Assembly: GCA_045655565.1 (NCBI GenBank)
Contig: JAZOPN010000062.1
Span: 10,546-74,545 of the forward strand
Reading direction: 5' to 3'
From: Eubacteriales bacterium
Lineage (GTDB): Bacteria > Bacillota > Clostridia > Oscillospirales > CAG-272
DNA: 64,000 nt
Shown here piece by piece: positions 5,641-32,074 of the stretch. Positions within the stretch are counted from its first letter, which is position 1. Each line of letters begins with the position of its first letter. Under the pieces are notes generated by a model that worked only from the letters and a program-made list of their open reading frames with translations, had not been told where the DNA came from and did no database searches. Position numbers and translations under genes: made by a program.

Positions 5641-7734
5641 ATGAAGACAAGAATTATCAGCTTAATCCTTGTTCTCGTTATGACAGTGCTGAGCCTCGCA
5701 GGTTGTGCATACAACTATGCGGCTAATGATATGACTCAGTATGTGTCATTTGACGAGGATGAGTTCAAGAAGGCGCTATCCGCTCTCAAGATTGACGATG
5801 CTGACTTCGGCACCGATGAGGCGAAGCGCTGGGATAAGGTTTGGGACACCATCTTCTCGAGTCTTGCAAAAGAGGTGGAGAGTGATGACAAGGTTACCGA
5901 GGGTAAGCCCGGTGTCTATGACCTTTACTACTACTGCTACTATGCAACCTATACCAAGGACGGCAAGGAGATTGTAGTATTCTCTAAGAAGATGAATGCA
6001 GGCTCGCCCACTAGCCTCCAGCTCGGGCTCTCGAGTCTTGAGGACCTCAACAAGAAGATTGCAGAGGCGATTAAGGATGTTGAGCTTACAGAGAACAATG
6101 TATACACCGTCGACAGCACCACAACTACCAAGGCTGATCTTGGCAATATGGTAGCGGTTTCCTATAAGGAGGCTTATACCGAGCCGGATGGCAAGGGCGG
6201 TACAAACAAGGTTACCAACACCGTTACCAATATGATAGTTACCCTCCCCGCAGCTGCACCCGCAGATGGCGTTGAGGCCACTATCCTTGACAAGCTCGTT
6301 GGACTTAATGTTGCCGGTGAGAAGAAGTCCTTCGACATCTATCGCGATATCAATGGTGATGGCACTATTGATAAGGAGGGCGATGATGCCGAGAAGGTCG
6401 AGTATACCAACGTTGTTGTAGACTGGGTAATCAAGTCCGGTGTTAACGAGTATGGAGAGAGTGGTATCACTGTTACCGACAAGACCTATACCGCAACCAA
6501 GACCGAGACCGATGTATACGGTAAGAGTCAGGACCTCAAGGATGTCGAGCTTACCTATCACATCTTCCCCATTGGCTTTATTAAGGTTGCTGATGATAAG
6601 GATGATGTATCCGCTAAGGTTATCCTTGACACTCTTATTGGTGACGCAATCAAGGCACCCAACGATGTTGATGGCGATGGCGTTATCAAGGAGGAGAAGG
6701 ATGCCAACGAGAACGGCAAGATAGACGATGACGAGAAGAGCGAGGAGTATGCAGGTACTCTCGATGTCTTCCACGACAAGGATTACAAGAAGGGCGATAA
6801 GAAGATTGCCGAGCTTGTTAAGGAGCTTGTTGACTTTTATGCCGACCTTGCTGAGGCAGAGACCGATTTCGATGAGAAGCAGACTGCCTTTGATAAGGCC
6901 GATAAGGTTGTAAAGGATAAAGAAGCTAAGAACGAGACCCCGACCAAGGAGCAGTTAGACGCTCAGTCTACCGCCTCTACCAACCTTGAGACCGCAAAGA
7001 AGGCTAAAGAGGGCGCTGAGAAGGATGTAAACGATAAGATAGCAGATATACTTGCTTGCACTAAGGAAGGTGACGATAAGGGCATTGAGGCTGTTATCAA
7101 GGAGCAGTATAACGAGAGTGTATACGAGGGCCTTGAGAATACCTACAAGAGTGCCATCAAGAAGAACCTTGCTAAGGAGATCTACGCTACTGTTGAGAAG
7201 CTCTCTGAGTTCAAGAAGGACGATAAGGGCTGGTGGATTCTTCCGAGAGCCGCAGTTGACGAGGCCTACAAGCGCGTTCTTAACAACTATAAGTATTCCT
7301 TCTACGAGGGTGACTTTAACTCCTCTACCAGCAACTACACCAAGTATGCCGGTGACTTCTACAAGTTCCTAAGAGAGGATACTACAAACGGTCTTGGCCT
7401 TGGTAAGGATGCTACCATGCAGGACATCTACAACGCACTTGGTGCTGAGGCAGAGCAGTCGGTAAAGGATGCTATCATCGTTTATAGACTTGCTGCACTC
7501 TACGGTGATGATGTTAAGGTGACAGAGGCTGATATCGACGCATTCAAGAAGACATACAACTACTTCCTCCTTCAGTATAGCCTTGGTTATGGCAATGAGG
7601 TTAAGTCCGAGTATTATATGACCGCTCTTCAGCTCAACAAGGTTCTTAACTACCTGCTCGAGGAGAACGAGGAGACCGACGACAATCTTCTTGACTATGT
7701 ACGCATCCAGTACACCTTCAACGAGAAAAAGTAA
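5641..7734 (+). CDS. Acidic lipoprotein with trigger-factor-C-domain-like C-terminus (putative envelope chaperone)
   Basis: It has a signal peptide with the lipobox LSLAG|C and a K/D/E-rich mature part. The C-terminal ~230 aa align by eye with the protein at 8334-10130 (WWILPRAAVDEAYKRV vs RWIPEREVLAYYEDYV; AIIVYRLAALYGDDVKVTEADIDAFKKTY vs KLVFYYVLKREGFTPSSEEYEKIYNDI). Confidence 0.6.
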   Translation: MKTRIISLILVLVMTVLSLAGCAYNYAANDMTQYVSFDEDEFKKALSALKIDDADFGTDEAKRWDKVWDTIFSSLAKEVESDDKVTEGKPGVYDLYYYCYYATYTKDGKEIVVFSKKMNAGSPTSLQLGLSSLEDLNKKIAEAIKDVELTENNVYTVDSTTTTKADLGNMVAVSYKEAYTEPDGKGGTNKVTNTVTNMIVTLPAAAPADGVEATILDKLVGLNVAGEKKSFDIYRDINGDGTIDKEGDDAEKVEYTNVVVDWVIKSGVNEYGESGITVTDKTYTATKTETDVYGKSQDLKDVELTYHIFPIGFIKVADDKDDVSAKVILDTLIGDAIKAPNDVDGDGVIKEEKDANENGKIDDDEKSEEYAGTLDVFHDKDYKKGDKKIAELVKELVDFYADLAEAETDFDEKQTAFDKADKVVKDKEAKNETPTKEQLDAQSTASTNLETAKKAKEGAEKDVNDKIADILACTKEGDDKGIEAVIKEQYNESVYEGLENTYKSAIKKNLAKEIYATVEKLSEFKKDDKGWWILPRAAVDEAYKRVLNNYKYSFYEGDFNSSTSNYTKYAGDFYKFLREDTTNGLGLGKDATMQDIYNALGAEAEQSVKDAIIVYRLAALYGDDVKVTEADIDAFKKTYNYFLLQYSLGYGNEVKSEYYMTALQLNKVLNYLLEENEETDDNLLDYVRIQYTFNEKK

Positions 7735-7774
7735 TAATTGACTTGTGGCAGAGCCACAGACACCATAATGGAAG

Positions 7775-7811
7775 AGGACTGTTCATAACCAAATAGGGCA
7801 GTCCTTTTCTT
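7775..7811 (+). terminator. Intrinsic terminator
   Basis: Stem AGGACTG (7775-7781) / CAGTCCT (7799-7805), followed by TTTTCTT. Confidence 0.6.
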
Positions 7812-7834
7812 ATCTATGATGTCGGGAGATTAAT

Positions 7835-8296
7835 ATGAAGGATGTTTTTATATATACAGACGGAGCATGCCGCGGTAATCCGGGGCCCGGTGGCTGGGGT
7901 GCTATCCTGGTGTGGGGCAAATACGAGCGCGAGCTGTCCGGTGGCGAGCCAATGACGACCAACAACCGCATGGAGCTTCTTGGCGCAATATCAGCTCTTG
8001 AGGCGTTAAAGGAGTCCTGCCACGTTACCCTCACCTCAGACTCAAAGTATGTTATCGATGCCTTTACACTCGGCTGGGTGGAGAATTGGCGCGAGCACGG
8101 TTGGAGGCGCGGTAAGGACGAATTAAAGAACCCCGACCTATGGCAGAGGCTGTATGAGCTATGCAAGACGCACACCGTCGACTTCGTATGGGTTAAGGGT
8201 CACGCAGGCCACGAGTATAACGAGAGATGCGACCGCCTAGCGACCGCCTATGCCGACAGCTTTGGTACTGCTGACCCCGGTGAGAAACCATTCTAG
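7835..8296 (+). CDS. rnhA: Ribonuclease HI
   Basis: Classic RNase H1 blocks are present: [34 protein letters not shown] and [17 protein letters not shown]. Confidence 0.95.
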
Positions 8297-20604: not shown

Positions 20605-20796
20605 CTACTTATTTTGACTGCTTCCGTCATTAATATCTAGTCTAACGAGTGTGTATTCAATAATCTTAATCAATAATCCATCATCGGTTATAACTAATTC
20701 AACCGTATTACCAAAGCCAAGCCGTTTTCGGATGTCTTTCGGAATATGTAGTCTACCTAATGAGTCTATTTCCTTAATAACGCCTAATTCCTTCAC
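20605..20796 (-). CDS. AbrB/MazE/SpoVT-type DNA-binding protein (63 aa)
   Basis: IDSLGRLHIPKDIRKRLGFGNTVELVITDDGLLI is the typical swapped-hairpin AbrB-domain pattern. Confidence 0.75.
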   Translation of the reverse strand: MKELGVIKEIDSLGRLHIPKDIRKRLGFGNTVELVITDDGLLIKIIEYTLVRLDINDGSSQNK

Positions 20797-20904: not shown

Positions 20905-21135
20905 ATGAACGCCACAGTAGAAAGAAAAATAGGAAGCAATATACGTAGGCTTCGCGAGAGGGCGGGGCTAACACAGGAGCAGGTCGCAGCAAGGCTTCAA
21001 ACAAAGGGATGCGATATAACGAGGAGCGCTGTTGCAAAAATTGAGGTTGGGCAACGTCACCTCTACCCCGATGAAATAGTGCTCCTAAAGGAGATACTCT
21101 CGGCAGACTACGAGGAAATTTTTGATTTAGAATAA
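20905..21135 (+). CDS. XRE-family helix-turn-helix regulator (76 aa)
   Basis: IGSNIRRLRERAGLTQEQVAARL...SAVAKIEVGQR is a Cro/C1-type HTH. It is divergent from the AbrB-like gene. The shared intergenic region holds TTGCAC-N8-GTGCAA (20820-20839) and a TATAAT. Confidence 0.85.
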   Translation: MNATVERKIGSNIRRLRERAGLTQEQVAARLQTKGCDITRSAVAKIEVGQRHLYPDEIVLLKEILSADYEEIFDLE

Positions 21136-21460: not shown

Positions 21461-21490
21461 TTGACAAGCGTACTATCGTGCGTATATAAT
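21461..21490 (+). promoter_or_regulatory. Promoter of the first island gene, preceded by phased GTGAAWA repeats
   Basis: TTGACA (21461-21466), an 18-nt spacer, then TATAAT (21485-21490). GTGAATA, GTGAATA, GTGAAAA and CTGAAAA start at 21418, 21427, 21438 and 21449. Confidence 0.6.
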
Positions 21491-21522
21491 ATGTTTAGAT
21501 TATTATGTGGAGGTATCGGGTT

Positions 21523-22824
21523 ATGAACTTCGAAACTGAAAATATTGAATTCAAACTGCAATTTACCGAGGATTTATACAAGGAGGTAATTGCTTTCGCT
21601 AACACCGATGGTGGCGTCATCTATATTGGAATTAACAATGACGGAGAGGCTGTCGGAATAGATAACGTTGATGAGAATTATACCCGCATCACAAACGGAA
21701 TCCGTGATGCGATAATGCCTGACGTTACCATGTTCGTGCGATATACAATTCAGGAGAACAAGGTTGTTAAAATTTCGGTCGGCGAGGGCTCGTGTAAGCC
21801 TTACTATTTAAAGTCAAAGGGACTTAAGCCCAGCGGTGTATTTGTCAGACAAGGTACATCCACTGCTCCCGCATCTCCCGAACAGATACGTGCGATGATA
21901 AAAGAGTCGGATGGCGACAATTTTGAGGCTATGCGTTCTATGAATCAAGACTTAACCTTCGAGAATGCAAAATCGGCGTTCAAAAAATATGGTATTGAGT
22001 TCGCCGAAAATAAGTATAGAGCATTAGGTGTCACACATCCCACCGAGGAGCTATACACCAATCTTGCCCTTATTATCTCGGATCAGTGCTCCCACACGAC
22101 CAAGGTTGCTGTGTTTGGAGATGATGCGAACACCGAGTTTAGGGATAGCAAGGAGTTCGGTGGCTCAATATTCAAGCAGCTTGACGATACCTATTCGTAT
22201 TTAACCTTGTGCAACAAAAAGGTTGCAATCTTCCAGGGGCTTGAAAGAATAGAAAAGGCAGATTACCCGGATGCGGCTCTTCGAGAGGCATTACTCAATG
22301 CCCTCGTTCACAGAGATTATAGCTTTAGCGGCAGTGTCATTATAAACATTAACGATAATGAAATGGAATTTATCTCCATAGGCGGACTTCTTCCCGGACT
22401 TTCCCCTGATGATATCCGTAGCGGTATTTCTCAGCCGAGAAATAAAAATCTTGCTGATATATTCCATCGCTTGCATCTTATTGAGTCATATGGAACAGGT
22501 ATAAGAAAAATATATAATCTCTATGCTGATTGCTCCATTCAACCTCGAATTGAGGTTACCTCGAATACCTTTAAAATCATTCTTCCCAATATGAATGGTG
22601 CGAAGGTATCAAACTTACAATTCCCTGCAATCCTTGCAATATCCCCGCAAAAGCAAACCATACTTGACTTTATTGGCAAAAACGGTTTTGTTACCGAACA
22701 GCAAATTATGGAACTAGTGAATGTAAAAAAGACAAGAGCATATAACATAGTTAAAGAAATGTGTGCCGAAGGACTGATCAAACCGATCGGCCGCGGAAGT
22801 GCTAAAAGATATGTGCGAGCATAA
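21523..22824 (+). CDS. AlbA_2 (Schlafen-like) plus HATPase_c_4 plus C-terminal wHTH protein ('RecG-like' putative regulator)
   Basis: The ATG at 21523 follows GGAGG. ENIEFKLQFTEDLYKEVIAFANTDGGVIYIGINNDGEAVGI is AlbA_2-like. ALREALLNALVHRDYSFSG is the HATPase_c_4-like block. The C-terminal ILDFIGKNGFVTEQQIMELVNVKKTRAYNIVKEM is wHTH-like. Confidence 0.7.
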   Translation: MNFETENIEFKLQFTEDLYKEVIAFANTDGGVIYIGINNDGEAVGIDNVDENYTRITNGIRDAIMPDVTMFVRYTIQENKVVKISVGEGSCKPYYLKSKGLKPSGVFVRQGTSTAPASPEQIRAMIKESDGDNFEAMRSMNQDLTFENAKSAFKKYGIEFAENKYRALGVTHPTEELYTNLALIISDQCSHTTKVAVFGDDANTEFRDSKEFGGSIFKQLDDTYSYLTLCNKKVAIFQGLERIEKADYPDAALREALLNALVHRDYSFSGSVIININDNEMEFISIGGLLPGLSPDDIRSGISQPRNKNLADIFHRLHLIESYGTGIRKIYNLYADCSIQPRIEVTSNTFKIILPNMNGAKVSNLQFPAILAISPQKQTILDFIGKNGFVTEQQIMELVNVKKTRAYNIVKEMCAEGLIKPIGRGSAKRYVRA

Positions 22825-22854: not shown

Positions 22855-25299
22855 ATGGCAATCAAAAAGAATGAATTATATAGCTCGCTGTGGGCAAGCT
22901 GCGATAAACTTCGCGGAGGTATGGATGCTTCGCAGTACAAGGATTACATCCTTACCCTTCTGTTCGTAAAGTATGTAACAGATAAGTTTAAGGGTGTTAA
23001 ATATGCAGATATCACCGTTCCCGAAGGTGGTAGCTTTGATGATATCGTAGCACTTAAAAATAACCCTAATATTGGCGAGGAAATGGATAAAGTTATTGCT
23101 AAACTTGCAGAAGCAGGTAGCAATCAGCTTCATGGAGTTATAGACAATGCCCACTTCAACGATGAATCTAAGCTTGGCAAAGGTCAGGAAATGGTAGACA
23201 AGCTTACCGGACTTATCGGTATTTTCCAGCGCCCCGAGTTTGACTTTAAAAATAACAAAGCGAACGGCGATGACATTCTCGGTGATGCCTACGAATATCT
23301 CATGCGCAACTTTGCAACCGAAAGCGGCAAGAGCAAAGGACAGTTCTACACTCCTGCCGAGGTTTCCCGTATTCTTGCTAAGGTTATAGGTATCGATAAG
23401 GTTGACGATCCCGACACATCCGTCTACGACCCTGCGTGCGGTTCGGGCTCACTCCTTATCCGCGCAGCCGATGAAGCACCTATTGACGTTGCAATTTATG
23501 GTCAGGAGAAGGAAATTACAACCGCAGGCCTTGCGAAGATGAACCTCGTTCTCCATAACAAAGCAACCGGCGAGATTTATGCAGGAAACACCTTCGCTGA
23601 TCCTAAATATAGAGATGAACACGACAACGACGTGCTTCGTCGCTTCGATTTCATTGTTGCAAACCCGCCCTTCTCACTCAAGAACTGGACAGATGGCCTT
23701 AAAGAGTTCGGTAGATTTGACGGATACGGAGACAGACCTCCCGAAAAGAACGGCGACTTCGCATGGATGCTTCATATTCTTAAATCCTTAAAGCAAACCG
23801 GAAAAGCAGCCGTTATTCTTCCTCACGGAGTTTTGTTCAGAGGAAATGCTGAAGCAACGATACGCAGAACCATTATTGACAAGGGTTATATCAAAGGCAT
23901 TATAGGTCTTCCCGCCAACCTTTTCTATGGCACAGGTATACCTGCGTGTATCATAGTTATCGATAAAGAGGATGCCGACGAGCGCGAAGGCATCTTTATG
24001 ATCGATGCAAGTCGCGGATTTGTTAAGGATGGAAACAAGAACCGTCTTCGTGAGCAGGACATTTACAAGATCGTAACCACGTTTAACGAACAGATCACAA
24101 CCGATCCAAAGTATGCTCGTTTTGTACCCAACGACGAGATAAAGATTAAGAACGATTACAATCTTAATATCCCTCGCTACATAGATAGCTCAATACCCGA
24201 AGATCTCCAGGATATAGATGCACATCTGCATGGTGGAATCCCCGCTATTGATGTTGATTCTATGGAGAAGTATTGGAGTCTTTTCCCGAAGCTTAAGGAA
24301 AAGCTCTTCTCCCCGTTACGCGAGGGTTATTATCAGCTTAACGTTCCCAAGGACGAAGTTCGTATCACCGTTTATGCAGATGATGAGTTCTCAGCATACT
24401 CTGAACGCATTGATATGGCATTTGACGCATGGACAAACGATGTGGACAAAGGTTTACGTAATATAGATGAGTTCGTAGAGATCAAAAAATACATTGTAGA
24501 GCTTTCAGAAATCCTCATCGCAAAATATGCTGATATCGAGCTTGTAGACAAGTATGACGTATATCAGGTGCTCCTTTCCTATTGGCAGGAAGTAATGGCT
24601 GATGACGTTTACGTGCTTGTCCAGGACGGATATGAGGCAGGTCGTGAAACCGAGGATATTTACGAGATTTCCGAGGACAAAAAGACCAAGAAGGAAAAGA
24701 GAAAGTACAAAGGGTGGGAAGGCAAGCTCATACCCAAAGCTTTGATAGAAGCGGCGTTCTTTGCTGAGGAGCGTCAAAAGATAAACGATGCACAAGCTAT
24801 CGCTGAAGCAACAGAAGCACGCATTGAGGAGTTGGAAGAAGAATACACAGCAGAAGACGGCATTCTCGCCGATTGCTTAAACGATAAGGCTGCTGTAGAT
24901 GAAAAAGCGGTTAAGGCAAAACTTAAAGAGCTGAAAAAATCAGCTCCTAAAAGCGAAGAGCATTCGATTCTTTGCGAGTACATCGAGCTTTGCGACAAGG
25001 CAAAGGATTATAATAAGATAGTTAAAGAGTTGAATGCCGCCCTTGATGAAGCATGCAAAGCGAAGTATGAAGATCTTACTATCGACGAAATCAAGGAGCT
25101 TCTTATCAATCGTAAGTGGTACTATACCATATTTAAGGGAATCAAGGAACTCTACGTAACCACATCGCATGAAATTGCAGGTCGCATTGCAGAACTTGCC
25201 GAAAGATACGAGGATACTCTGCCGAACCTTGAAAGCGATGTAAATACTTATGAAGCAAAAGTCAAAGCACATCTTGAGAGGATGGGATTTGTATGGTAA
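22855..25299 (+). CDS. hsdM: Type I R-M system methyltransferase subunit, long form (814 aa)
   Basis: It has an HsdM N-terminal block (LWASCDKLRGGMDASQYKDYILTLLFVKY), motif I VYDPACGSGSLL and motif IV FIVANPPFS. An extra ~300-aa C-terminal region has a charged coiled-coil-like stretch. Confidence 0.95.
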   Translation: MAIKKNELYSSLWASCDKLRGGMDASQYKDYILTLLFVKYVTDKFKGVKYADITVPEGGSFDDIVALKNNPNIGEEMDKVIAKLAEAGSNQLHGVIDNAHFNDESKLGKGQEMVDKLTGLIGIFQRPEFDFKNNKANGDDILGDAYEYLMRNFATESGKSKGQFYTPAEVSRILAKVIGIDKVDDPDTSVYDPACGSGSLLIRAADEAPIDVAIYGQEKEITTAGLAKMNLVLHNKATGEIYAGNTFADPKYRDEHDNDVLRRFDFIVANPPFSLKNWTDGLKEFGRFDGYGDRPPEKNGDFAWMLHILKSLKQTGKAAVILPHGVLFRGNAEATIRRTIIDKGYIKGIIGLPANLFYGTGIPACIIVIDKEDADEREGIFMIDASRGFVKDGNKNRLREQDIYKIVTTFNEQITTDPKYARFVPNDEIKIKNDYNLNIPRYIDSSIPEDLQDIDAHLHGGIPAIDVDSMEKYWSLFPKLKEKLFSPLREGYYQLNVPKDEVRITVYADDEFSAYSERIDMAFDAWTNDVDKGLRNIDEFVEIKKYIVELSEILIAKYADIELVDKYDVYQVLLSYWQEVMADDVYVLVQDGYEAGRETEDIYEISEDKKTKKEKRKYKGWEGKLIPKALIEAAFFAEERQKINDAQAIAEATEARIEELEEEYTAEDGILADCLNDKAAVDEKAVKAKLKELKKSAPKSEEHSILCEYIELCDKAKDYNKIVKELNAALDEACKAKYEDLTIDEIKELLINRKWYYTIFKGIKELYVTTSHEIAGRIAELAERYEDTLPNLESDVNTYEAKVKAHLERMGFVW

Positions 25300-27140
25300 A
25301 GCAAGGATATAAGCAAACGGAAGTGGGCTTGATTCCGGAAGATTGGGATATAAGGAAAATTGGCGATTTCACGGATGCAACCGCTGGAGGAACTCCAAGC
25401 ACCGCTCATACTGAATATTGGAATGGCGAAATTCTTTGGATGAGTTCTGGAGAATTAAATAACAGAAGGATTCATAACGTACTTGGTAGAATAACGGAAG
25501 TTGGTTATAACAACTCCAGTACACATATGATACCAAAGAATTGTGTGCTAGTCGGATTGGCGGGTCAAGGAAAGACTAGAGGAACAGTTGCCATAAATTA
25601 TGTAGAGTTATGCACAAATCAATCCATTGCTGCAATTTTTCCGTCAAAAGAACATGACTCGGAATACCTGTATCAAAATTTATTGAGCAGATACGAAGAG
25701 TTGCGTGAATTGTCTTCTGGTGATGGCGGCAGAGGAGGATTAAATCTTACAATCATTAAAAACTTTTCCTGTGCTTTCCCAAAATTACAAGAACAAAACC
25801 AAATTGCCGAGGCACTTTTGGATGTGGATAGCATGATCTCCTCTCTTGAAAAACTGATTGCGAAGAAAAAAGCCATCAAGCAAGGTGCAATGCAGGAACT
25901 GCTCATAGGTAAAAAACGCTTGCCCGGATTTACTGGGGAGTGGAAAGATTTCACTATAGGTAAAATGGGGGAGTTTTATAGCGGTCTATTTGGCAAGAGC
26001 AAGAAGGATTTTGATTTTGGAAAAGCACGATATATAACATTCCTAAATGTTTTATCGAATGTGAAAATTGACACATCAATACTAGCCCCTGTTGATGTCA
26101 GAGAAAACGAATCTCAGAATGCTGTTAAAAAGGGAGATTTGTTTTTCAATACATCTTCTGAAACTCCTGAAGAAGTAGGTATGTGTGCTGTTTTAGATGA
26201 AGACCTTGATAACACCTATCTTAACAGTTTTTGCTTTGGTTTTAGATTGACGGATAGCAACCATAATCCATTGTTCTTATCCTATTATTTGAATAGTGAG
26301 ATTGGAAGAAAAATAATGAGTGTTTTGGCGCAGGGAGCAACAAGATATAACTTGTCAAAAAACAACTTTGCAGAAACAATCATAAGATTGCCTAACAAAG
26401 ATGAACAAACTGCAATTGCCTCTATTCTCTCCGATATGGATAATGAAATTGAAGCATTAAAGCGGAAACTAAACAAAACCCGCCATGTTAAGCAAGGTAT
26501 GATGCAGCAACTGCTAACAGGAAAAATTAGACTTGTTTCAGCAAGCGCAGATAACAAGCCTATTGAGGTTGTATCGAAGCCACGCCACAACCATCAGTTT
26601 GATGATGCAGTTGTAATAGCAGCTATTGTAAACGCATTTTATGCCGATACGTTACCCCTCGGCAGAAAAAAGGTGCAGAAGCTTTTATATCTTCTGCGAC
26701 GAAAACAAGAAGCCGACACCTCTTCATTTAAGAAAAAGGCCGCGGGACCTTATGCCGACGAAGTTCGCTATAAGGGTGGTGAACCTATTGCAGTTCGTAG
26801 TAAGTATGTTGAGAAAAAGCAAGGGCCGAAAGGCACCACCTTCTCAAAAGGTGAAAATATAGAATCGGCTCTTGAGTACATTGAGAAATGGGAAATGACC
26901 GACGATATCAATTGGCTCGTTTCGACGTTCAAATACACTAAAACCACCGATCTCGAGTTGTTCGCTACCATCGATATGGCAATGTGCGATTTGATAAACG
27001 CAGGAGAGCAAGTTTCAGTGGCATCGATTAAAAATCTTATCGCATCTAACAAAGAATGGAAAGATAAGTTGTCAAAAACCTACTTTTCCGATAACGATAT
27101 AGCAAGAGCAATAAGATTCTGTCAAAATACATTCAATTAA
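25293..27140 (+). CDS. hsdS: Type I R-M specificity subunit fused to a ~200-aa C-terminal Panacea/DUF4065-like domain
   Basis: Two TRDs are separated by the conserved helices LQEQNQIAEALLDVDSMISSLEKLIAKKKAIKQGAMQELL and KDEQTAIASILSDMDNEIEALKRKLNKTRHVKQGMMQQLLTGKIRL. The ORF then continues for ~200 aa (from nt 26538) with ...LPLGRKKVQKLLYLLRRK...AAGPYADEV... It overlaps hsdM by 7 nt. Confidence 0.9.
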   Translation: MVKQGYKQTEVGLIPEDWDIRKIGDFTDATAGGTPSTAHTEYWNGEILWMSSGELNNRRIHNVLGRITEVGYNNSSTHMIPKNCVLVGLAGQGKTRGTVAINYVELCTNQSIAAIFPSKEHDSEYLYQNLLSRYEELRELSSGDGGRGGLNLTIIKNFSCAFPKLQEQNQIAEALLDVDSMISSLEKLIAKKKAIKQGAMQELLIGKKRLPGFTGEWKDFTIGKMGEFYSGLFGKSKKDFDFGKARYITFLNVLSNVKIDTSILAPVDVRENESQNAVKKGDLFFNTSSETPEEVGMCAVLDEDLDNTYLNSFCFGFRLTDSNHNPLFLSYYLNSEIGRKIMSVLAQGATRYNLSKNNFAETIIRLPNKDEQTAIASILSDMDNEIEALKRKLNKTRHVKQGMMQQLLTGKIRLVSASADNKPIEVVSKPRHNHQFDDAVVIAAIVNAFYADTLPLGRKKVQKLLYLLRRKQEADTSSFKKKAAGPYADEVRYKGGEPIAVRSKYVEKKQGPKGTTFSKGENIESALEYIEKWEMTDDINWLVSTFKYTKTTDLELFATIDMAMCDLINAGEQVSVASIKNLIASNKEWKDKLSKTYFSDNDIARAIRFCQNTFN

Positions 27141-27151
27141 GAAAGGCATAT

Positions 27152-27466
27152 ATGAAAAGATCAGCAACAAGTATTATAGCAGCATTAGTTTTTATTCTTT
27201 TGTTCGGTGGATGGGGAATGTTTGCCGAAGCACTTGGCGTAATAGGAGAGGTGTTTATTGCCTTCTTCCCGGTTTTCTTCAACGTAGCTAAAAGTTCGAT
27301 TGAGGACTATCTGGCTTCCCCATATTTTATAACTGGAGTTGTTATGTCTATAGCTTCTGCCTTTGGCATCTGGTTTGGTGCTAAAGGCGGAAAGTTGCTG
27401 TTCTTGGTTATCTCAATAATCTGTGAAGTTATAAGCCTTGCAAGTATTTTAATGAATGTTATTTGA
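27152..27466 (+). CDS. Small membrane protein with four hydrophobic segments (104 aa), no family recognised
   Basis: It starts 11 nt after the hsdS stop, behind GAAAGG. The hydrophobic segments are SIIAALVFILLFGGWGMF, LGVIGEVFIAFFPVFF, YFITGVVMSIASAFGIWFG and LLFLVISIICEVISLASILMNVI. Confidence 0.6.
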   Translation: MKRSATSIIAALVFILLFGGWGMFAEALGVIGEVFIAFFPVFFNVAKSSIEDYLASPYFITGVVMSIASAFGIWFGAKGGKLLFLVISIICEVISLASILMNVI

Positions 27467-27520
27467 CTTTCACCAGTATAAATAATTAATCACGATTTCA
27501 TATAATAAGGAGATGATCAT

Positions 27521-27859
27521 ATGAAAATAGATATTAAGAATGGTGATTTAGTATTATTCAAATCCGATACCATTATAGTTCACGAAAGTTCGGATGTTTC
27601 CTTAACATTTGACGAAGAACTTACACTAACTTTTCGATTCATCGAAGATTCAACTACGAAAGATCAAAAGATGGAGTTTGTTCCTCAAGATAAAACAGTA
27701 ATAATTAAGCTGGTTAATTTTAACAATCCAATTGGAACTACTACATCAAATCATATTCCTTTTGCTACGGCTGATGATAAAGATCTATACATTTCTTTTG
27801 CTATTTATTCAGTAGGAAAATCTAAAGTTCTCCATTACAATATTTATACAGAGCAGTAA
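27521..27859 (+). CDS. Small soluble beta-rich protein (112 aa), no family recognised
   Basis: A strong RBS AAGGAG lies 8 nt upstream. The alternating pattern (DLVLFKSDTIIVHESSDVSLTFDEELTLTFRFIED...VIIKLVNF...LYISFAIYSVGKSKVLHYNIY) suggests a beta-sandwich-type fold. It has no TM segment. Confidence 0.65.
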   Translation: MKIDIKNGDLVLFKSDTIIVHESSDVSLTFDEELTLTFRFIEDSTTKDQKMEFVPQDKTVIIKLVNFNNPIGTTTSNHIPFATADDKDLYISFAIYSVGKSKVLHYNIYTEQ

Positions 27860-27865
27860 AGGATA

Positions 27866-28270
27866 ATGACGATGGCAAAAACTAAGAATAGCAAAATAAG
27901 AATCCAAGCTTTGCTGGAAAGACCCGATGTTTCTGTAACTGCGAATATTGAAGAAAATTATATTATCACTACGGAAGATAAGATAAGGATATTATACAAC
28001 GAATACAACGAAGCGAGAAAATATTCAGGAGAATTCTGGACATTTTTAGGCTTGTTTGTAGCATTATTAACAACCATACTTACTTGTGAGTTTAAGTCCA
28101 TTTTGGGCGTATCTGAATTCGTTTTTGAAGCAATATTTATACTTGCTACAGCAATTGCATTAGTATTAACGATATGGGCGGGAATTCAGTGGGGTATAAA
28201 TCACCAAAAACTCACTTTTGATCATTTCATAAATCAAATACGAGGTAACAACTCTGATGACAAAAATTGA
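27866..28270 (+). CDS. Small 2-TM protein with a polar N-terminal region (134 aa; alternative start 27872), no family recognised
   Basis: It starts 6 nt after the previous stop. The polar N-terminus of ~55 aa is followed by FWTFLGLFVALLTTILTCEF and FVFEAIFILATAIALVLTIWAGIQW. The last 14 nt overlap the hsdR start. Confidence 0.6.
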   Translation: MTMAKTKNSKIRIQALLERPDVSVTANIEENYIITTEDKIRILYNEYNEARKYSGEFWTFLGLFVALLTTILTCEFKSILGVSEFVFEAIFILATAIALVLTIWAGIQWGINHQKLTFDHFINQIRGNNSDDKN

Positions 28271-31200
28271 TGCAAAAGAAAAGATAACACAAAATCGTGT
28301 TATAAAATTCTTTGTGGACAAGCTCCATTATACATATCTTGGCGATCTGCATGACGGTGATAATTATAACGTCATGATTGACCGTCTTTACGCATACCTC
28401 ACGGGCAAAGGCGGTTATTCTCAGGCTTTGGCAAAGAAAGCTCTTGAAGTACTTATTCATGCGGCAAACAATCTTCAGTCCGGACTTTATGATGCCAATA
28501 AAGAAGTATACAGCTTGCTTAAATATGGTGCAAAAGTCAAGGAAAACGTAGGAGAACCCGAGAAAACTGTGTATTTCATAGATTGGGGCGATCCTACTAA
28601 AAATGATTTCTATATTGCCGAAGAGGTTACCGTAGTCGGCAATCATACAAAACGCCCTGATATAGTTGTTTATGTAAACGGCATTGCTCTTGCCGTTTTA
28701 GAGCTCAAGCGTAGCAGCGTGTCCGTTGCAGAAGGAATTCGCCAAAATCTCACAAACCAGAAAACTAATTTTATTGAGAGATTCTTTACTACCGTGCAAT
28801 TCTGCATGGCGGGTAATACCAGCGAAGGACTGCGTTACGGAACTCTTCTGACACCCGAAAAGCATTATTACGAATGGCAAGACGACGGCTTCAAGCAGTT
28901 CGATGAAGAACGTGATGAAACCGATGTTCTTATAGAGGAAAAGTGCAAAAGCTTCGATGAAAAGCTTGAAAAGCAGCTGTTTTCAATGTTCTATAAGAAG
29001 CGCTTCCTTGACCTCGTTCATAACTTTATTGTTTTTGATAAGGGTATAAAGAAGGTTTGCCGCTATAACCAATACTATGCCATCAAGCGTGCACAGCATC
29101 GCTTGACCGATGAAAAGCGTGGCGGCATTATCTGGCACACCAAAGGAAGCGGAAAGACCTTGACTATGGTATGGCTCTCAAAATGGATTCTTTCAAACAA
29201 TCCTAAGGCGAGAGTTCTCATTATCACAGACCGCGAAGAGCTTGACGATCAGATAGAAAAAAGCTATCGCGGCGTTGATGAAACGATAGTTCGCACCAGA
29301 AGCGGCAAGGATCTTATTGAACGCTTAAATTCTTACGAGGCCAGCTTGATTTGTTCGCTTGTCCATAAGTTTGGAAAACGCGGTGGCGAAGCTACCGGAG
29401 ATGATTATCAAAGGTATATAGAGAATCTTCTTGCATCTCTACCTGCAAATTACTCCGCAAAGGGTGAAATATACGTCTTCGTTGACGAGTGCCACAGAAC
29501 CCAGTCCGGTAAGCTCCATGCAGCGATGAAGACCATAATTCCTAATGGAATATTTATAGGTTTTACCGGTACTCCTCTGCTTAAGAAAGACAAGAAAACA
29601 AGCCTTGAAACCTTCGGTGGATATATACATACTTACAAGTTTGACGAAGGTGTAAGAGACGGAGTAGTTCTCGATCTTAGATATGAATACCGCGAGGTTG
29701 CTCAAGAGCTCAAATCTCAAGACAAGATCGATATGTGGTTTGATATTAAGACCAGAGGTCTTACTCCTCGTGCTCAGGCAAAGCTGAAATCTATGTGGGC
29801 AACCAAGCAAAAGGTTTTGTCCTCAAAATCCCGTCTTGAGAAAATCGCACTTGATATTCAGTTCGATTTTGAAACCAAGTCGCGTTTGATGGACGGAAAC
29901 GGAAATGCAATGTTGGTTGCAGGATCGGTCTATGAAGCATGCAAGTATTATGAAATTTTCCAATCACTTGGATTTAAGAAGTGTGCCATTATTTCTTCTT
30001 ACGAGCCTCAAACTGGAGATCTTCGTACAGATACGGTAAGTGACGAGGAAGAGACCGAAACATTTGAGAAATACGAAATTTATACACAAATGCTCGGTGG
30101 TTCCTCTGTTGAAGACTTTGAAACAAACGCAAAGAAGAAATTTGTAGAAGAGCCTTACAACATGAAGCTTTTGATAGTTGTTGATAAGCTTCTTACAGGA
30201 TTTGATGCACCCCCGTGTACTTATCTTTACATCGATAAAGCTATGCATGACCACGGTTTATTCCAGGCGATATGCAGAGTTAACCGACTTGATGATGAAA
30301 GCAAAGATTTTGGTTACATCGTAGACTACAAGCAGCTTTTCGGTGATCTCGCTGATGCAATAAGCACCTATACTTCAGGCGCTTTTGAAGCTTATGACGT
30401 AGAGGACGTTGCAGGTTTAATCAAGGATCGCACGGAAGAATCTGCAAAATACTTCAAGGATACGCTGGATGCACTTAATGAACTTTGCGAAGGTGTTGCT
30501 ATGCCTCGTGCAGAGCTTAATTACATTCATTATTTCTGCGGTGAAAATGGTGTTGACCTTGATAGTGATGAAGCCTACGCAAGAATGCGCGAAAAGCTTT
30601 ATAAATTGGTTTCTCGACTTGTAAGAGCTTTCGCTGAATTCAAACCGAGAATGGACGATGCCGGAATATCCAAAGACGAGCAGGCAAACCTTGATATACG
30701 CGTAAATGAATATTTGAAGCTTCGCGAAGTTATAGGCCGTGCAAGCGGTGACTTTCTTGATATGAAGCAGTTCGAGCCGGGAATGCGTTATCTCATTGAT
30801 AACTATATAGTTGCAGAGGATGCTGAGAAGCTCGCTATGTTTGATGACTTCACTCTTCTTGATTTCATTCTTACGAAAGAATCCCAACTCTCCGGAGATG
30901 GCAAGAATAACGAACAAGAAAGTGCGGCCGAAGCAATTGAGAACAATATACGTAAAAAGGTTGTTCAGAAGATTGTTATAAACCCTGCATATTACAGCAA
31001 AATGTCCGAGGTTCTTGAACAGTTGATTCTTGACCGTAAGCGTGGCGTTATTGCATACAAGCAGCTTTTGGAACGTTATATTGAATTAGCTAAAAATGTT
31101 ACTCTTCCCGAAAACAATACCAGATATCCGGAGTCCATTCGTTCAAGCAGTGCGATGAGGGCATTCTATGACAACTGCGGAGAAGATGAAGCATTAGCGA

Positions 31201-31358
31201 TAAAGCTTCACAAGGCAGTTATGTCTTCCAAAATGAACGGCTTCCGAAACAATCCTGCCAAGGAAAACAGAATCAAAAGCGCAATCTTCAAGATTGTTAA
31301 GGACGAGGAAATGGTTGAAAGCCTTTTCAAGATTATAGTTGAACAAGAGGAATACTGA
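28257..31358 (+). CDS. hsdR: Type I R-M system restriction (helicase/endonuclease) subunit
   Basis: It has an HsdR N-terminal nuclease-like region (RPDIVVYVNGIALAVLELK), helicase motif I HTKGSGKTLTMV, motif II VFVDECHRTQSG and the later block LLTGFDAP. Confidence 0.95.
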   Translation: MTKIDAKEKITQNRVIKFFVDKLHYTYLGDLHDGDNYNVMIDRLYAYLTGKGGYSQALAKKALEVLIHAANNLQSGLYDANKEVYSLLKYGAKVKENVGEPEKTVYFIDWGDPTKNDFYIAEEVTVVGNHTKRPDIVVYVNGIALAVLELKRSSVSVAEGIRQNLTNQKTNFIERFFTTVQFCMAGNTSEGLRYGTLLTPEKHYYEWQDDGFKQFDEERDETDVLIEEKCKSFDEKLEKQLFSMFYKKRFLDLVHNFIVFDKGIKKVCRYNQYYAIKRAQHRLTDEKRGGIIWHTKGSGKTLTMVWLSKWILSNNPKARVLIITDREELDDQIEKSYRGVDETIVRTRSGKDLIERLNSYEASLICSLVHKFGKRGGEATGDDYQRYIENLLASLPANYSAKGEIYVFVDECHRTQSGKLHAAMKTIIPNGIFIGFTGTPLLKKDKKTSLETFGGYIHTYKFDEGVRDGVVLDLRYEYREVAQELKSQDKIDMWFDIKTRGLTPRAQAKLKSMWATKQKVLSSKSRLEKIALDIQFDFETKSRLMDGNGNAMLVAGSVYEACKYYEIFQSLGFKKCAIISSYEPQTGDLRTDTVSDEEETETFEKYEIYTQMLGGSSVEDFETNAKKKFVEEPYNMKLLIVVDKLLTGFDAPPCTYLYIDKAMHDHGLFQAICRVNRLDDESKDFGYIVDYKQLFGDLADAISTYTSGAFEAYDVEDVAGLIKDRTEESAKYFKDTLDALNELCEGVAMPRAELNYIHYFCGENGVDLDSDEAYARMREKLYKLVSRLVRAFAEFKPRMDDAGISKDEQANLDIRVNEYLKLREVIGRASGDFLDMKQFEPGMRYLIDNYIVAEDAEKLAMFDDFTLLDFILTKESQLSGDGKNNEQESAAEAIENNIRKKVVQKIVINPAYYSKMSEVLEQLILDRKRGVIAYKQLLERYIELAKNVTLPENNTRYPESIRSSSAMRAFYDNCGEDEALAIKLHKAVMSSKMNGFRNNPAKENRIKSAIFKIVKDEEMVESLFKIIVEQEEY

Positions 31359-32074
31359 TGCATACTGAAATTTCAGGTATTACAATTGAAATTATAAAAA
31401 AGAATATAAAGAATATGCATCTTTCCGTTCTTCCTCCAAATGGTAGAGTAAGAATATCTGCACCGCTTCACATGTCCGATGAGAGCATTTTAATGTTTGC
31501 CAGAACAAAACTTTCGTGGATCAGAAAGCAGCAAGAGAAGTTTGCAGTTCAAGAGCGACAATCGGAGAGAGAATACGTTTCAGGGGAAACACTTTACGTG
31601 TTCGGACAACAATATTTTCTGCGCGTTGAGTATAGCTACAAGGGCAATGCGCTTGTTCTTTCCGGTAACGAAGCTATACTCACAGTCAGAAAGGAAAGTA
31701 CTGCCAAACAGCGCGAAGCATTTGTAAATGAATGGTATCGTGCCTTGCTTAAAGAAAAGATTGATGTCTACTTGCCTAAGTGGGAAAAGATTACGGGATT
31801 GTATTGTGATTCTTGGCAAACCAAGTATATGACAACCCGTTGGGGTACGTGCAACACCAACAGTCGCAAAATATGGCTTAATCTTCAATTGGCCAAAAAA
31901 CCGATAGAGTGTCTCGAATATGTTATTTTGCATGAACTTGCGCATCTTAAAATCAAAGGTCATGGTAAGGAATTTGTTGCACTTCTCGACCAATATATGC
32001 CGTATTGGAGAGAAACCAGGAAACTTCTCAACGAACTAAAACTTGATTATATGGAGGACGATAAAGATGGCTAA
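31358..32074 (+). CDS. DUF45/YgjP-like zinc metalloprotease (M48/SprT-like)
   Basis: WGTCNTNSRKIWLNLQLAKKPIECLEYVILHELAHLKIKGHGKEF carries the HExxH motif. The ATG overlaps the hsdR stop (TGATG). Confidence 0.8.
   Translation: MHTEISGITIEIIKKNIKNMHLSVLPPNGRVRISAPLHMSDESILMFARTKLSWIRKQQEKFAVQERQSEREYVSGETLYVFGQQYFLRVEYSYKGNALVLSGNEAILTVRKESTAKQREAFVNEWYRALLKEKIDVYLPKWEKITGLYCDSWQTKYMTTRWGTCNTNSRKIWLNLQLAKKPIECLEYVILHELAHLKIKGHGKEFVALLDQYMPYWRETRKLLNELKLDYMEDDKDG

Follow-up and report, generated by a model that had tools for sequence, protein, structure and literature searches.

We analyzed a 64,000-nucleotide stretch of contig JAZOPN010000062.1 (hereafter the window), assembled from a Eubacteriales bacterium of the CAG-272 lineage, and focused on a type I restriction-modification (R-M) locus whose specificity subunit, HsdS, carries an additional domain at its C terminus. 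In the open reading frame (ORF) list, an AlbA_2-type gene, hsdM, hsdS, three small genes that we term ORF-A, ORF-B, and ORF-C, hsdR, and an M48 peptidase gene form a single operon-like run on the plus strand. The features of the locus are the following.

20905..21135, + strand, small Xre-type helix-turn-helix (HTH) ORF of 76 aa, upstream of the operon (ORF list)
21461..21490, + strand, sigma-70-like promoter, TTGACA-18-TATAAT (12/12 consensus positions)
21505..22824, + strand, AlbA_2/HATPase_c_4/winged-helix protein of 439 aa (Pfam)
22855..25299, + strand, hsdM, long form, 814 aa, overlapping the start of hsdS (PADLOC MTase_I PDLC03027, end to end)
25293..26537, + strand, hsdS core, aa 1–415, with two target recognition domains (TRDs) and conserved helices (Pfam, PADLOC)
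26538..26591, + strand, flexible linker of HsdS, aa 416–433, SASADNKPIEVVSKPRHN (pLDDT <50 in the model)
26592..27140, + strand, DarG-C-terminal-domain-like module of HsdS, aa 434–615 (NCBIfam, PADLOC, hhalign, BLASTP, AlphaFold2)
27152..27466, + strand, ORF-A, very hydrophobic, 104 aa, about four transmembrane (TM) segments (hydropathy)
27521..27859, + strand, ORF-B, soluble, acidic DUF6864 protein of 112 aa (Pfam PF21732, E = 5e-20; phrog_32866, E = 7e-9)
27866..28270, + strand, ORF-C, 134 aa, soluble N-terminal part followed by two TM helices (phrog_32870, E = 5e-10; hydropathy)
28257..31358, + strand, hsdR, 1033 aa (49% identity over 1030 aa to HsdR of the enteropathogenic Escherichia coli [EPEC] island described below)
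31358..32074, + strand, YgjP-like/M48-type metallopeptidase of 238 aa (Pfam PF01863, E = 1e-59)

The ORF spanning 25293–27140 (+) is one unbroken frame of 615 aa. Its first 415 residues match Pfam Methylase_S twice (E = 1e-39) and PADLOC Specificity_I from end to end (E = 1.6e-95), and they close with ...KQGMMQQLLTGKIRLV. Two TRDs with conserved helical regions, together with hsdM and hsdR in the same locus, identify the protein as HsdS. An initial annotation, made from the sequence alone, had reported an extra C-terminal domain of about 200 aa on this protein, and this is borne out in detail: residue 416 falls exactly at nt 26538, and both the string quoted from the extension, HQFDDAVVIAAIVNAFYADTLPLGRKKVQKLLYLLRRKQEADTSSFKKKAAGPYADEVRY, and the quoted end of the HsdS core are present. 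An AlphaFold2 model of the extension, built from a 57-sequence alignment, reached a pLDDT of 84.5 and a pTM of 0.81. It consists of a disordered linker of about 18 aa (aa 416–433), which varies in length and sequence among homologues, followed by a folded module of about 180 aa (aa 434–615) with two lobes. The N-lobe is winged-helix-like and carries the motif QKLLY/GPY; the C-lobe is helical and carries the motifs LELFATIDMA, EW..KL, and F.D.DI..AI. Far from being a product of read-through, the extension is a genuine domain with a fold of its own. A sequencing or frameshift artefact was also rejected as the origin of the fusion, since about 50 independent assemblies contain the fused ORF.

Profile searches relate this module to the C-terminal domain of the antitoxin DarG. 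The extension matches the C-terminal part of NCBIfam antitoxin_DarG (E = 7e-8; model positions 161–335 of 338) with a score of 32 bits, far under the equivalog cut-off of 250 for DarG itself, and it matches PADLOC DarG over positions 164–324 of 329 (E = 5.6e-11), a model that detected all 17 of the 17 family members tested. We then compared the module with the experimentally studied DarG of EPEC, taken from NC_011601. BLASTP aligned the extension with DarG residues 172–347 (E = 4e-4, 22% identity over 184 aa), and an hhalign comparison of the family profile with the same protein covered 161 columns and DarG residues 171–352 of 355 at 94.9% probability (E = 4.3e-8). Motifs common to the two are QKLxxLLxR, GPYAP, LELLATVD, W..K/R, and F.D.N[IL]..AI. 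The EPEC DarG C-terminal domain in turn matches the solved C-terminal domain of Mtb DarG, 7YK3_B (E = 1.6e-13). The extension is similar in size (~180 aa) to the DarG2 C-terminal domain (EPEC aa ~127–355; Mtb 7YK3 chain B) and homologous to it over both lobes. When the PDB was searched by sequence, using either the single domain or two profiles of the family, the HsdS helices alone matched and 7YK3 was not retrieved.

In DarG, the C-terminal domain (aa 127–330) lacks glycohydrolase activity, binds the toxin DarT, and neutralizes DarT on its own (Lawaree 2020; PMC7003065). Taking identity and evolutionary placement jointly, we are highly confident that the HsdS extension is a homologue of this DarT-sequestering domain. 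The claim that an antitoxin-like domain is fused to an R-M specificity subunit accordingly stands, with the antitoxin placed in the DarG lineage. The window protein nonetheless differs from DarG in that it has neither a macrodomain nor a DarT partner, its domain being joined to HsdS rather than to a glycohydrolase. All DarG matches cover the C-terminal part only, and tblastn with the EPEC macrodomain found nothing in the window or in 54 related loci identified by genome scan. DarT (DUF4433) was likewise absent from the 64-kb window and from within ~7 kb in the 54 loci (tblastn, E ≤ 0.01), and ORF-A, ORF-B, and ORF-C had no PADLOC match.

The initial annotation had assigned the extension to the Panacea (DUF4065) antitoxins. 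That family assignment was rejected: PF13274 matched none of 65 family members (cut-offs of E ≤ 1 for the window domain, E ≤ 10 for 17 close members, and E ≤ 1 for 47 distant ones), and no Pfam model matched anywhere in the extension. The motif on which the resemblance was based nevertheless marks a real superfamily, one in which DarG is the closest kin of the extension and Panacea is reached by way of the DarG N-lobe. As a reference for PanA we used the validated protein YP_863932.1 of Burkholderia prophage phi52237 (Kurata 2022) and a 35-member PF13274 alignment assembled from its homologues. Direct comparison of the extension with this PanA profile in hhalign was weak (4.7% probability, P = 0.0085), and the alignment pairs PLGRKKVQKLLYLLRR...AAGPY with TNLAIQKLAYFCHGW...RFGPVLP, the stretch that had been cited as the Panacea hallmark. 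The same PanA profile aligned with residues 168–252 of EPEC DarG, in the N-lobe, at 93.1% probability (E = 3e-7); 14 of the 35 PanA proteins match PADLOC DarG and no other PADLOC model; and an AlphaFold model of PanA has 7YK3_B as its top PDB match, albeit a weak one (probability 0.77, TM-score 0.46). Homology of DUF4065 proteins to the DarG C-terminal domain has been described in a 2026 paper (PMC13621843). At the level of sequence, then, the N-lobe is probably common to the extension, DarG, and Panacea, and QKLLY...GP[YV] is a signature common to these three families. Because the extension also shares its C-lobe with DarG, it is DarG-type and not PanA-type, and its link to Panacea (PF13274; PanA antitoxins, SocA) is indirect.

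Gene arrangement sets the extension apart from Panacea as well. No conserved toxin gene adjoins it: where Panacea forms a conserved two-gene arrangement, no conserved gene follows the extension, and in 31 of 53 loci no gene at all stands between it and hsdR. A regular-expression scan for Panacea-like genes standing on their own, run on every fetched locus, picked up the extension family alone. Separately, a Tunicatimonas pelagia plasmid (NZ_CP120684; L009, 5043–6489) encodes a stand-alone 268-aa protein with no Pfam assignment, the C-terminal half of which is extension-like (28% identity, E = 3e-4). It is preceded by a hypothetical gene of 203 aa and adjoined by helicase and DNA-methyltransferase genes.

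The fusion is common. A profile of the extension alone, searched against 1.84 billion representatives, retrieved 632 clusters at E ≤ 1e-3, 459 at E ≤ 1e-10, and 264 at E ≤ 1e-30. Among the top 150 proteins, 144 were newly retrieved, and 112 of these are at least 550 aa long with the domain at the C terminus; a second homologue search with a broad profile returned the HsdS-fused family alone and no other architectures. The 54 loci of the genome scan are spread over Bacillota, Spirochaetota, Bacteroidota, Pseudomonadota (with Bartonella apis, Desulfovibrio, and Accumulibacter among them), Lentisphaeria, and others. Bartonella apis PEB0122, Holdemania sp. Marseille-P2844, and Paenibacillus alkaliterrae DSM 17040 are among the carriers that are in culture. 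About 50 of them encode an intact fused ORF of 575–640 aa, in the order hsdM, extended hsdS, hsdR, M48; hsdR is conserved 3′ of the extended hsdS in related loci, and the M48 gene, the conserved final gene of the operon, was detected by tblastn in 47 of the 54 (L010–L063). A DNA search of E. coli genomes with the domain gave no match. Some extension members additionally match the C-terminal parts of two PADLOC models, MTase_I PDLC03039 (positions 517–675 of 708) and Specificity_I PDLC03196 (610–723 of 792). HsdM or other HsdS families thus appear to carry fused domains of this kind as well.

In the comparison of the window with L010, its nearest relative, dN/dS is 0.051 for the extension domain, alongside 0.038 for HsdM, 0.041 for HsdR, and 0.046 for the M48 protein. 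The domain is therefore under strong purifying selection and is no decaying remnant. We conclude that the fusion, although optional, is a widespread accessory under strong selection in a type I family that is characterized by an HsdM of the long form, an HsdR of ~1030 aa, and an M48 peptidase at the end of the operon, and that includes EPEC's RptR-RMS-DarTG-M48 island (RRDM). In two related loci hsdS is split (L006, 6900–8723; L007, 4152–5975) into two ORFs, one of 328 aa with Methylase_S and one of 240 aa with the final conserved helix and the extension, the cluster of the short product having 82 member sequences. The split may reflect a frameshift, phase variation, or a gene that is truly in two parts.

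The EPEC island offers the closest point of comparison for the locus. Both share a backbone of a small HTH gene, a long hsdM, hsdS, a cargo slot, hsdR, and an M48 gene, and the window proteins are 52% (HsdM, over 812 aa), 49% (HsdR), and 43% (M48) identical to those of the island. The slot of EPEC contains a complete darT-darG pair between hsdS and hsdR, whereas in the window a DarG-type domain lies inside HsdS and three unrelated small ORFs occupy the slot. In both, the DarG-type domain is encoded directly 5′ of hsdR, but in the extension family it is part of HsdS. Neither the window nor any of the 54 loci has a homologue of RptR. We also observed that the first TRD of the window HsdS (25302–25922) is 62% identical to the second TRD of EPEC HsdS (aa 246–452), which suggests TRD shuffling and possibly a common half-site; between the window and L010 the TRDs differ, despite backbones that are ~88% identical.

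The authors of the EPEC-island paper regard the hsdS–hsdR junction as a probable recombination hotspot for defense systems. We measured this slot as the distance from the stop codon of the extension to the start of hsdR. The gap is at most 30 bp in 31 of 53 loci, and it is 4 bp in L001. Filled slots hold unrelated, defense-type genes, namely DUF3800 (a recurrent 1185-bp insert), DUF2971, AbiTii, FRG, TIR, RhuM, SIR2 plus HATPase, YhcG/DUF1016, and AlbA_2, together with a weak Abi_alpha match. Variable and unrelated defense genes at the hsdS/hsdR junction, flanked by conserved genes, are what R-M-embedded cargo looks like, and the DarTG of EPEC sits in the same position. A further relative of this R-M family, in E. 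coli 2013C-4991 (L071, 3683–11459), encodes an HsdS fragment of 156 aa; its slot contains two DUF262 genes, followed by hsdR and M48, with no hsdM annotated. It is an extension-less locus with cargo at this junction.

Comparison of the window with L010 resolves how its own slot was filled. The two DNA sequences are 84–88% identical over hsdM, the conserved regions of HsdS, the extension, and ORF-A up to nt 27464, and identity returns at 28256, where hsdR starts. The L010 counterpart of ORF-B and ORF-C is a DUF2971 gene. The boundaries of the swap are exact (27465 and 28255), and ORF-B and ORF-C represent a cassette exchanged between the stop of ORF-A and the start of hsdR. Neither gene has a homologue in any related locus, and searches of viral contigs, metagenomes, and phages for close relatives gave nothing useful. 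On the 2.5-kb Pantoea agglomerans plasmid pT88c_D (L065, 15–700), a DUF6864 gene is directly followed by a gene for a 109-aa protein with two TM helices. DUF6864 plus a small two-TM protein is a recurrent two-gene module, and ORF-B and ORF-C would most simply be an autonomous pair of a soluble and a membrane protein. The pair may act in exclusion or abortive infection, with ORF-C as the probable membrane effector.

ORF-A has a different history. It is 94% identical in L010 and belongs to the backbone common to the window and this nearest relative. Its start lies 11 nt past the hsdS stop, and it follows extended hsdS in L010 and in a second relative (L067). A metagenomic locus (L066) has an ORF-A homologue, again at a distance of 11 nt, behind an HsdS without the extension. 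ORF-A matched no family in the libraries scanned and has no similarity to known toxins. The dS between ORF-A and its L010 counterpart (7576–7890) is 0.21, with values of 0.8–1.0 for the extension, hsdM, and hsdR and 0.57 for the M48 gene, which suggests either a more recent exchange or constraint on synonymous sites. A 16-bp stem-loop lies inside the gene (27355–27392). GC content across the three small ORFs (window 27000–28500) is 0.30–0.37, as against 0.41–0.46 in hsdM and hsdR, consistent with acquired cargo. Judging by their sequences and those of related loci, all three small ORFs are cargo rather than cognate partners of the domain, and none depends on the extension.

Upstream of the operon, the small HTH ORF (20905–21135) occupies a position like that of RptR in the EPEC island and, by this analogy, is a possible controller. 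BLASTP produced no alignment between the two proteins, and homology to RptR was rejected for lack of similarity; small HTH genes also lie 5′ of hsdM in L001 and L006. An AbrB/SpoVT-like ORF of 63 aa, assigned by eye, is encoded on the minus strand at 20605–20796. The promoter at 21461–21490, from its match to consensus alone, likely marks the start of the operon. The AlbA_2/HATPase_c_4 gene that follows (21505–22824) is an accessory, defense-type gene 5′ of hsdM. In L002 (1064–2452), a gene of the same AlbA_2/HATPase_c_4/winged-helix kind is found in the slot, directly after extended hsdS.

What might a DarG-type domain do on HsdS? Our best explanation as a whole, to which we assign a probability of roughly 0.4, is that a DarG-type domain has been fused to HsdS as a tethered module that restrains HsdR. 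The domain would be a protein-sequestering module of the methyltransferase core, directed at a DNA enzyme that is a constant part of the system itself and potentially toxic. We favor a tethered module because the domain is conserved regardless of cargo, is fused to subunits of the methyltransferase core, is strongly selected, and has no DarT nearby; HsdR is the first candidate for its target because it is the only "toxin" of the system that is always present. As a built-in "antitoxin", the domain would restrain or regulate restriction, acting on free or mis-engaged HsdR or in restriction alleviation, and it would not be an antidote for the downstream genes. The functional part of this explanation, a sequestering or regulatory module for a constant component with HsdR as first candidate, is drawn by analogy with DarG and is tentative.

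Several observations weigh against this explanation. The binding partner is predicted by analogy, and the only partner demonstrated for the homologous domain is DarT, which favors an anti-DarT role. The extension is optional: EPEC HsdS (453 aa) does not have it, and neither does the HsdS of L066, whose C-terminal helix is near-identical and which ends ...LLTGKIRLV-stop. HsdR and HsdM are equal in length with and without the extension, leaving no obvious extra docking domain. Structural comparison did not recover the expected fold, in that the top 50 Foldseek matches of the extension model do not include 7YK3 and the best of them are weak matches to winged-helix proteins (ROQ, MarR, and F-93; E ~0.1). 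Finally, the EPEC island restricts phage with an HsdS that has no extension (PMC12255303), so the domain is dispensable for basic R-M activity.

The main competing explanation, which we consider rather unlikely though it is the strongest of the alternatives, takes the domain to be an orphaned, "anti-addiction" remnant of DarG. An ancestral hsdS-darT-darG-hsdR arrangement would have lost darT and the macrodomain by deletion, leaving the remaining domain fused in frame to hsdS, where it would still neutralize DarT-type toxins encoded elsewhere or on mobile elements; with such a fusion in place, cells could have lost or exchanged the DarTG cassette and escaped post-segregational killing. The proven capacity of the homologous domain to sequester DarT, for which it is sufficient alone, speaks for this history, as does the placement of the domain in the same R-M family and in the same slot as EPEC darTG, directly 5′ of hsdR in both. 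It is difficult to reconcile, however, with the absence of DarT from the 64-kb window and from within ~7 kb in all 54 loci, and with purifying selection that remains strong across phyla with no linked toxin. An identity of 22% to the EPEC domain means that the fusion is no recent deletion product, and a one-off deletion would leave unexplained the related domain in the C-terminal part of a PADLOC HsdM model. DarG2 may instead have acquired its domain from HsdS.

A broader prediction, which we hold to be speculative and improbable as it stands, is that the DarG-type domain physically couples toxic DNA enzymes to the methyltransferase cores of type I systems. It follows "Rosetta stone" reasoning, because the domain is fused to HsdS here and a PADLOC HsdM model has related domains in its C-terminal part. 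In split systems, of which EPEC RRDM is one, DarG would use this domain to dock on the M2S1 complex or would be controlled by the complex through it. In fused systems, it would hold HsdR or pass it on to the conserved M48/SprT-like peptidase, much as SocA hands SocB to ClpXP. This would amount to a dedicated restriction-alleviation or guard mechanism.

Still less probable is a promiscuous docking hub, whereby the domain tethers whichever cargo fills the slot to the R-M complex and the empty loci represent unoccupied sockets. Cargo does always insert directly 3′ of the domain, and promiscuity toward partners is a known trait of the Panacea lineage. Cargo of these kinds (RhuM, YhcG, AbiTii, DarTG, and others) nevertheless occurs at junctions without an extension (EPEC and L071; PMC12255303), the cargo proteins are structurally unrelated to one another, and the domain is strongly constrained even though most loci are empty.

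The initial annotation had gone further and proposed that the domain neutralizes a downstream toxin in an addiction or guard design. In this locus the toxin would be ORF-A or ORF-C, and loss or inhibition of the methylase complex would free it. A precedent exists in PrrC-EcoprrI, in which an anticodon nuclease encoded between hsdS and hsdR is held latent by a type Ic R-M complex. Coupling of effector activity to the state of the R-M complex is the logic shared by the two; PrrC, though, is a separate protein, its system has no antitoxin-like domain on HsdS, and it bears no sequence relationship to the window proteins. For the window, such control of cargo by the R-M complex would be hypothetical. 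With PrrC-EcoprrI and the EPEC DarTG island both using the hsdS–hsdR slot, the guard design is also less unusual than the initial annotation, which had set it apart from classical type I loci, supposed. The domain is of antitoxin type, ORF-A lies 11 nt from the hsdS stop and adjoins the extension in L010 and L067, and the toxins paired with Panacea, a partner-promiscuous lineage, include small membrane proteins (Kurata 2022). These points are outweighed by the distribution of the genes. The extension turned out to be common in systems that have no small ORF behind it (31 of 53, with gaps of ≤30 bp) and is followed elsewhere by unrelated cargo; ORF-B and ORF-C form a swapped cassette with no homologue in related loci, and the self-contained DUF6864 and two-TM pair on a 2.5-kb plasmid makes ORF-B the likelier partner of ORF-C; an ORF-A homologue follows an HsdS lacking the extension, and ORF-A does not resemble known toxins. 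We therefore think it very unlikely that the domain neutralizes any of the three.

An equally poor prospect is that the domain is a winged-helix appendage for nucleic acids, providing an extra DNA or RNA contact or autoregulation: the N-lobe is winged-helix-like, ROQ, MarR, and F-93 are its best, weak Foldseek matches, and the domain is mildly basic (pI 8.7), but all of the structural matches are non-significant (E ≥ 0.1), its net charge is just +3, and the homologous DarG domain binds protein rather than DNA. An acidic DNA-mimic role of the Ocr or ArdA type is unlikely for a domain with this basic pI.

The usual view of type I R-M systems is that of a machine with three subunits in which nothing beyond host proteases controls the toxic R subunit. 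A full-text literature search, of incomplete coverage, returned no description of HsdS fused to a DUF4065, Panacea, or DarG domain, and the locus presents a DarG/Panacea-lineage domain in a new and widespread architectural context. A domain whose sole characterized relative sequesters a DNA-modifying toxin is joined to HsdS in hundreds of systems across many phyla, with the toxin absent. Work on the small ORFs of the window should treat them as cargo in their own right, with ORF-A taken singly and the DUF6864 and two-TM proteins as a pair. The fusion provides a handle on a question left open in 2016, the reason for the frequent embedding of DarTG2 in type I operons; the coupler prediction, if true, would explain it. 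The fusion likewise provides a handle on how restriction is restrained in families without ClpXP-dependent alleviation.

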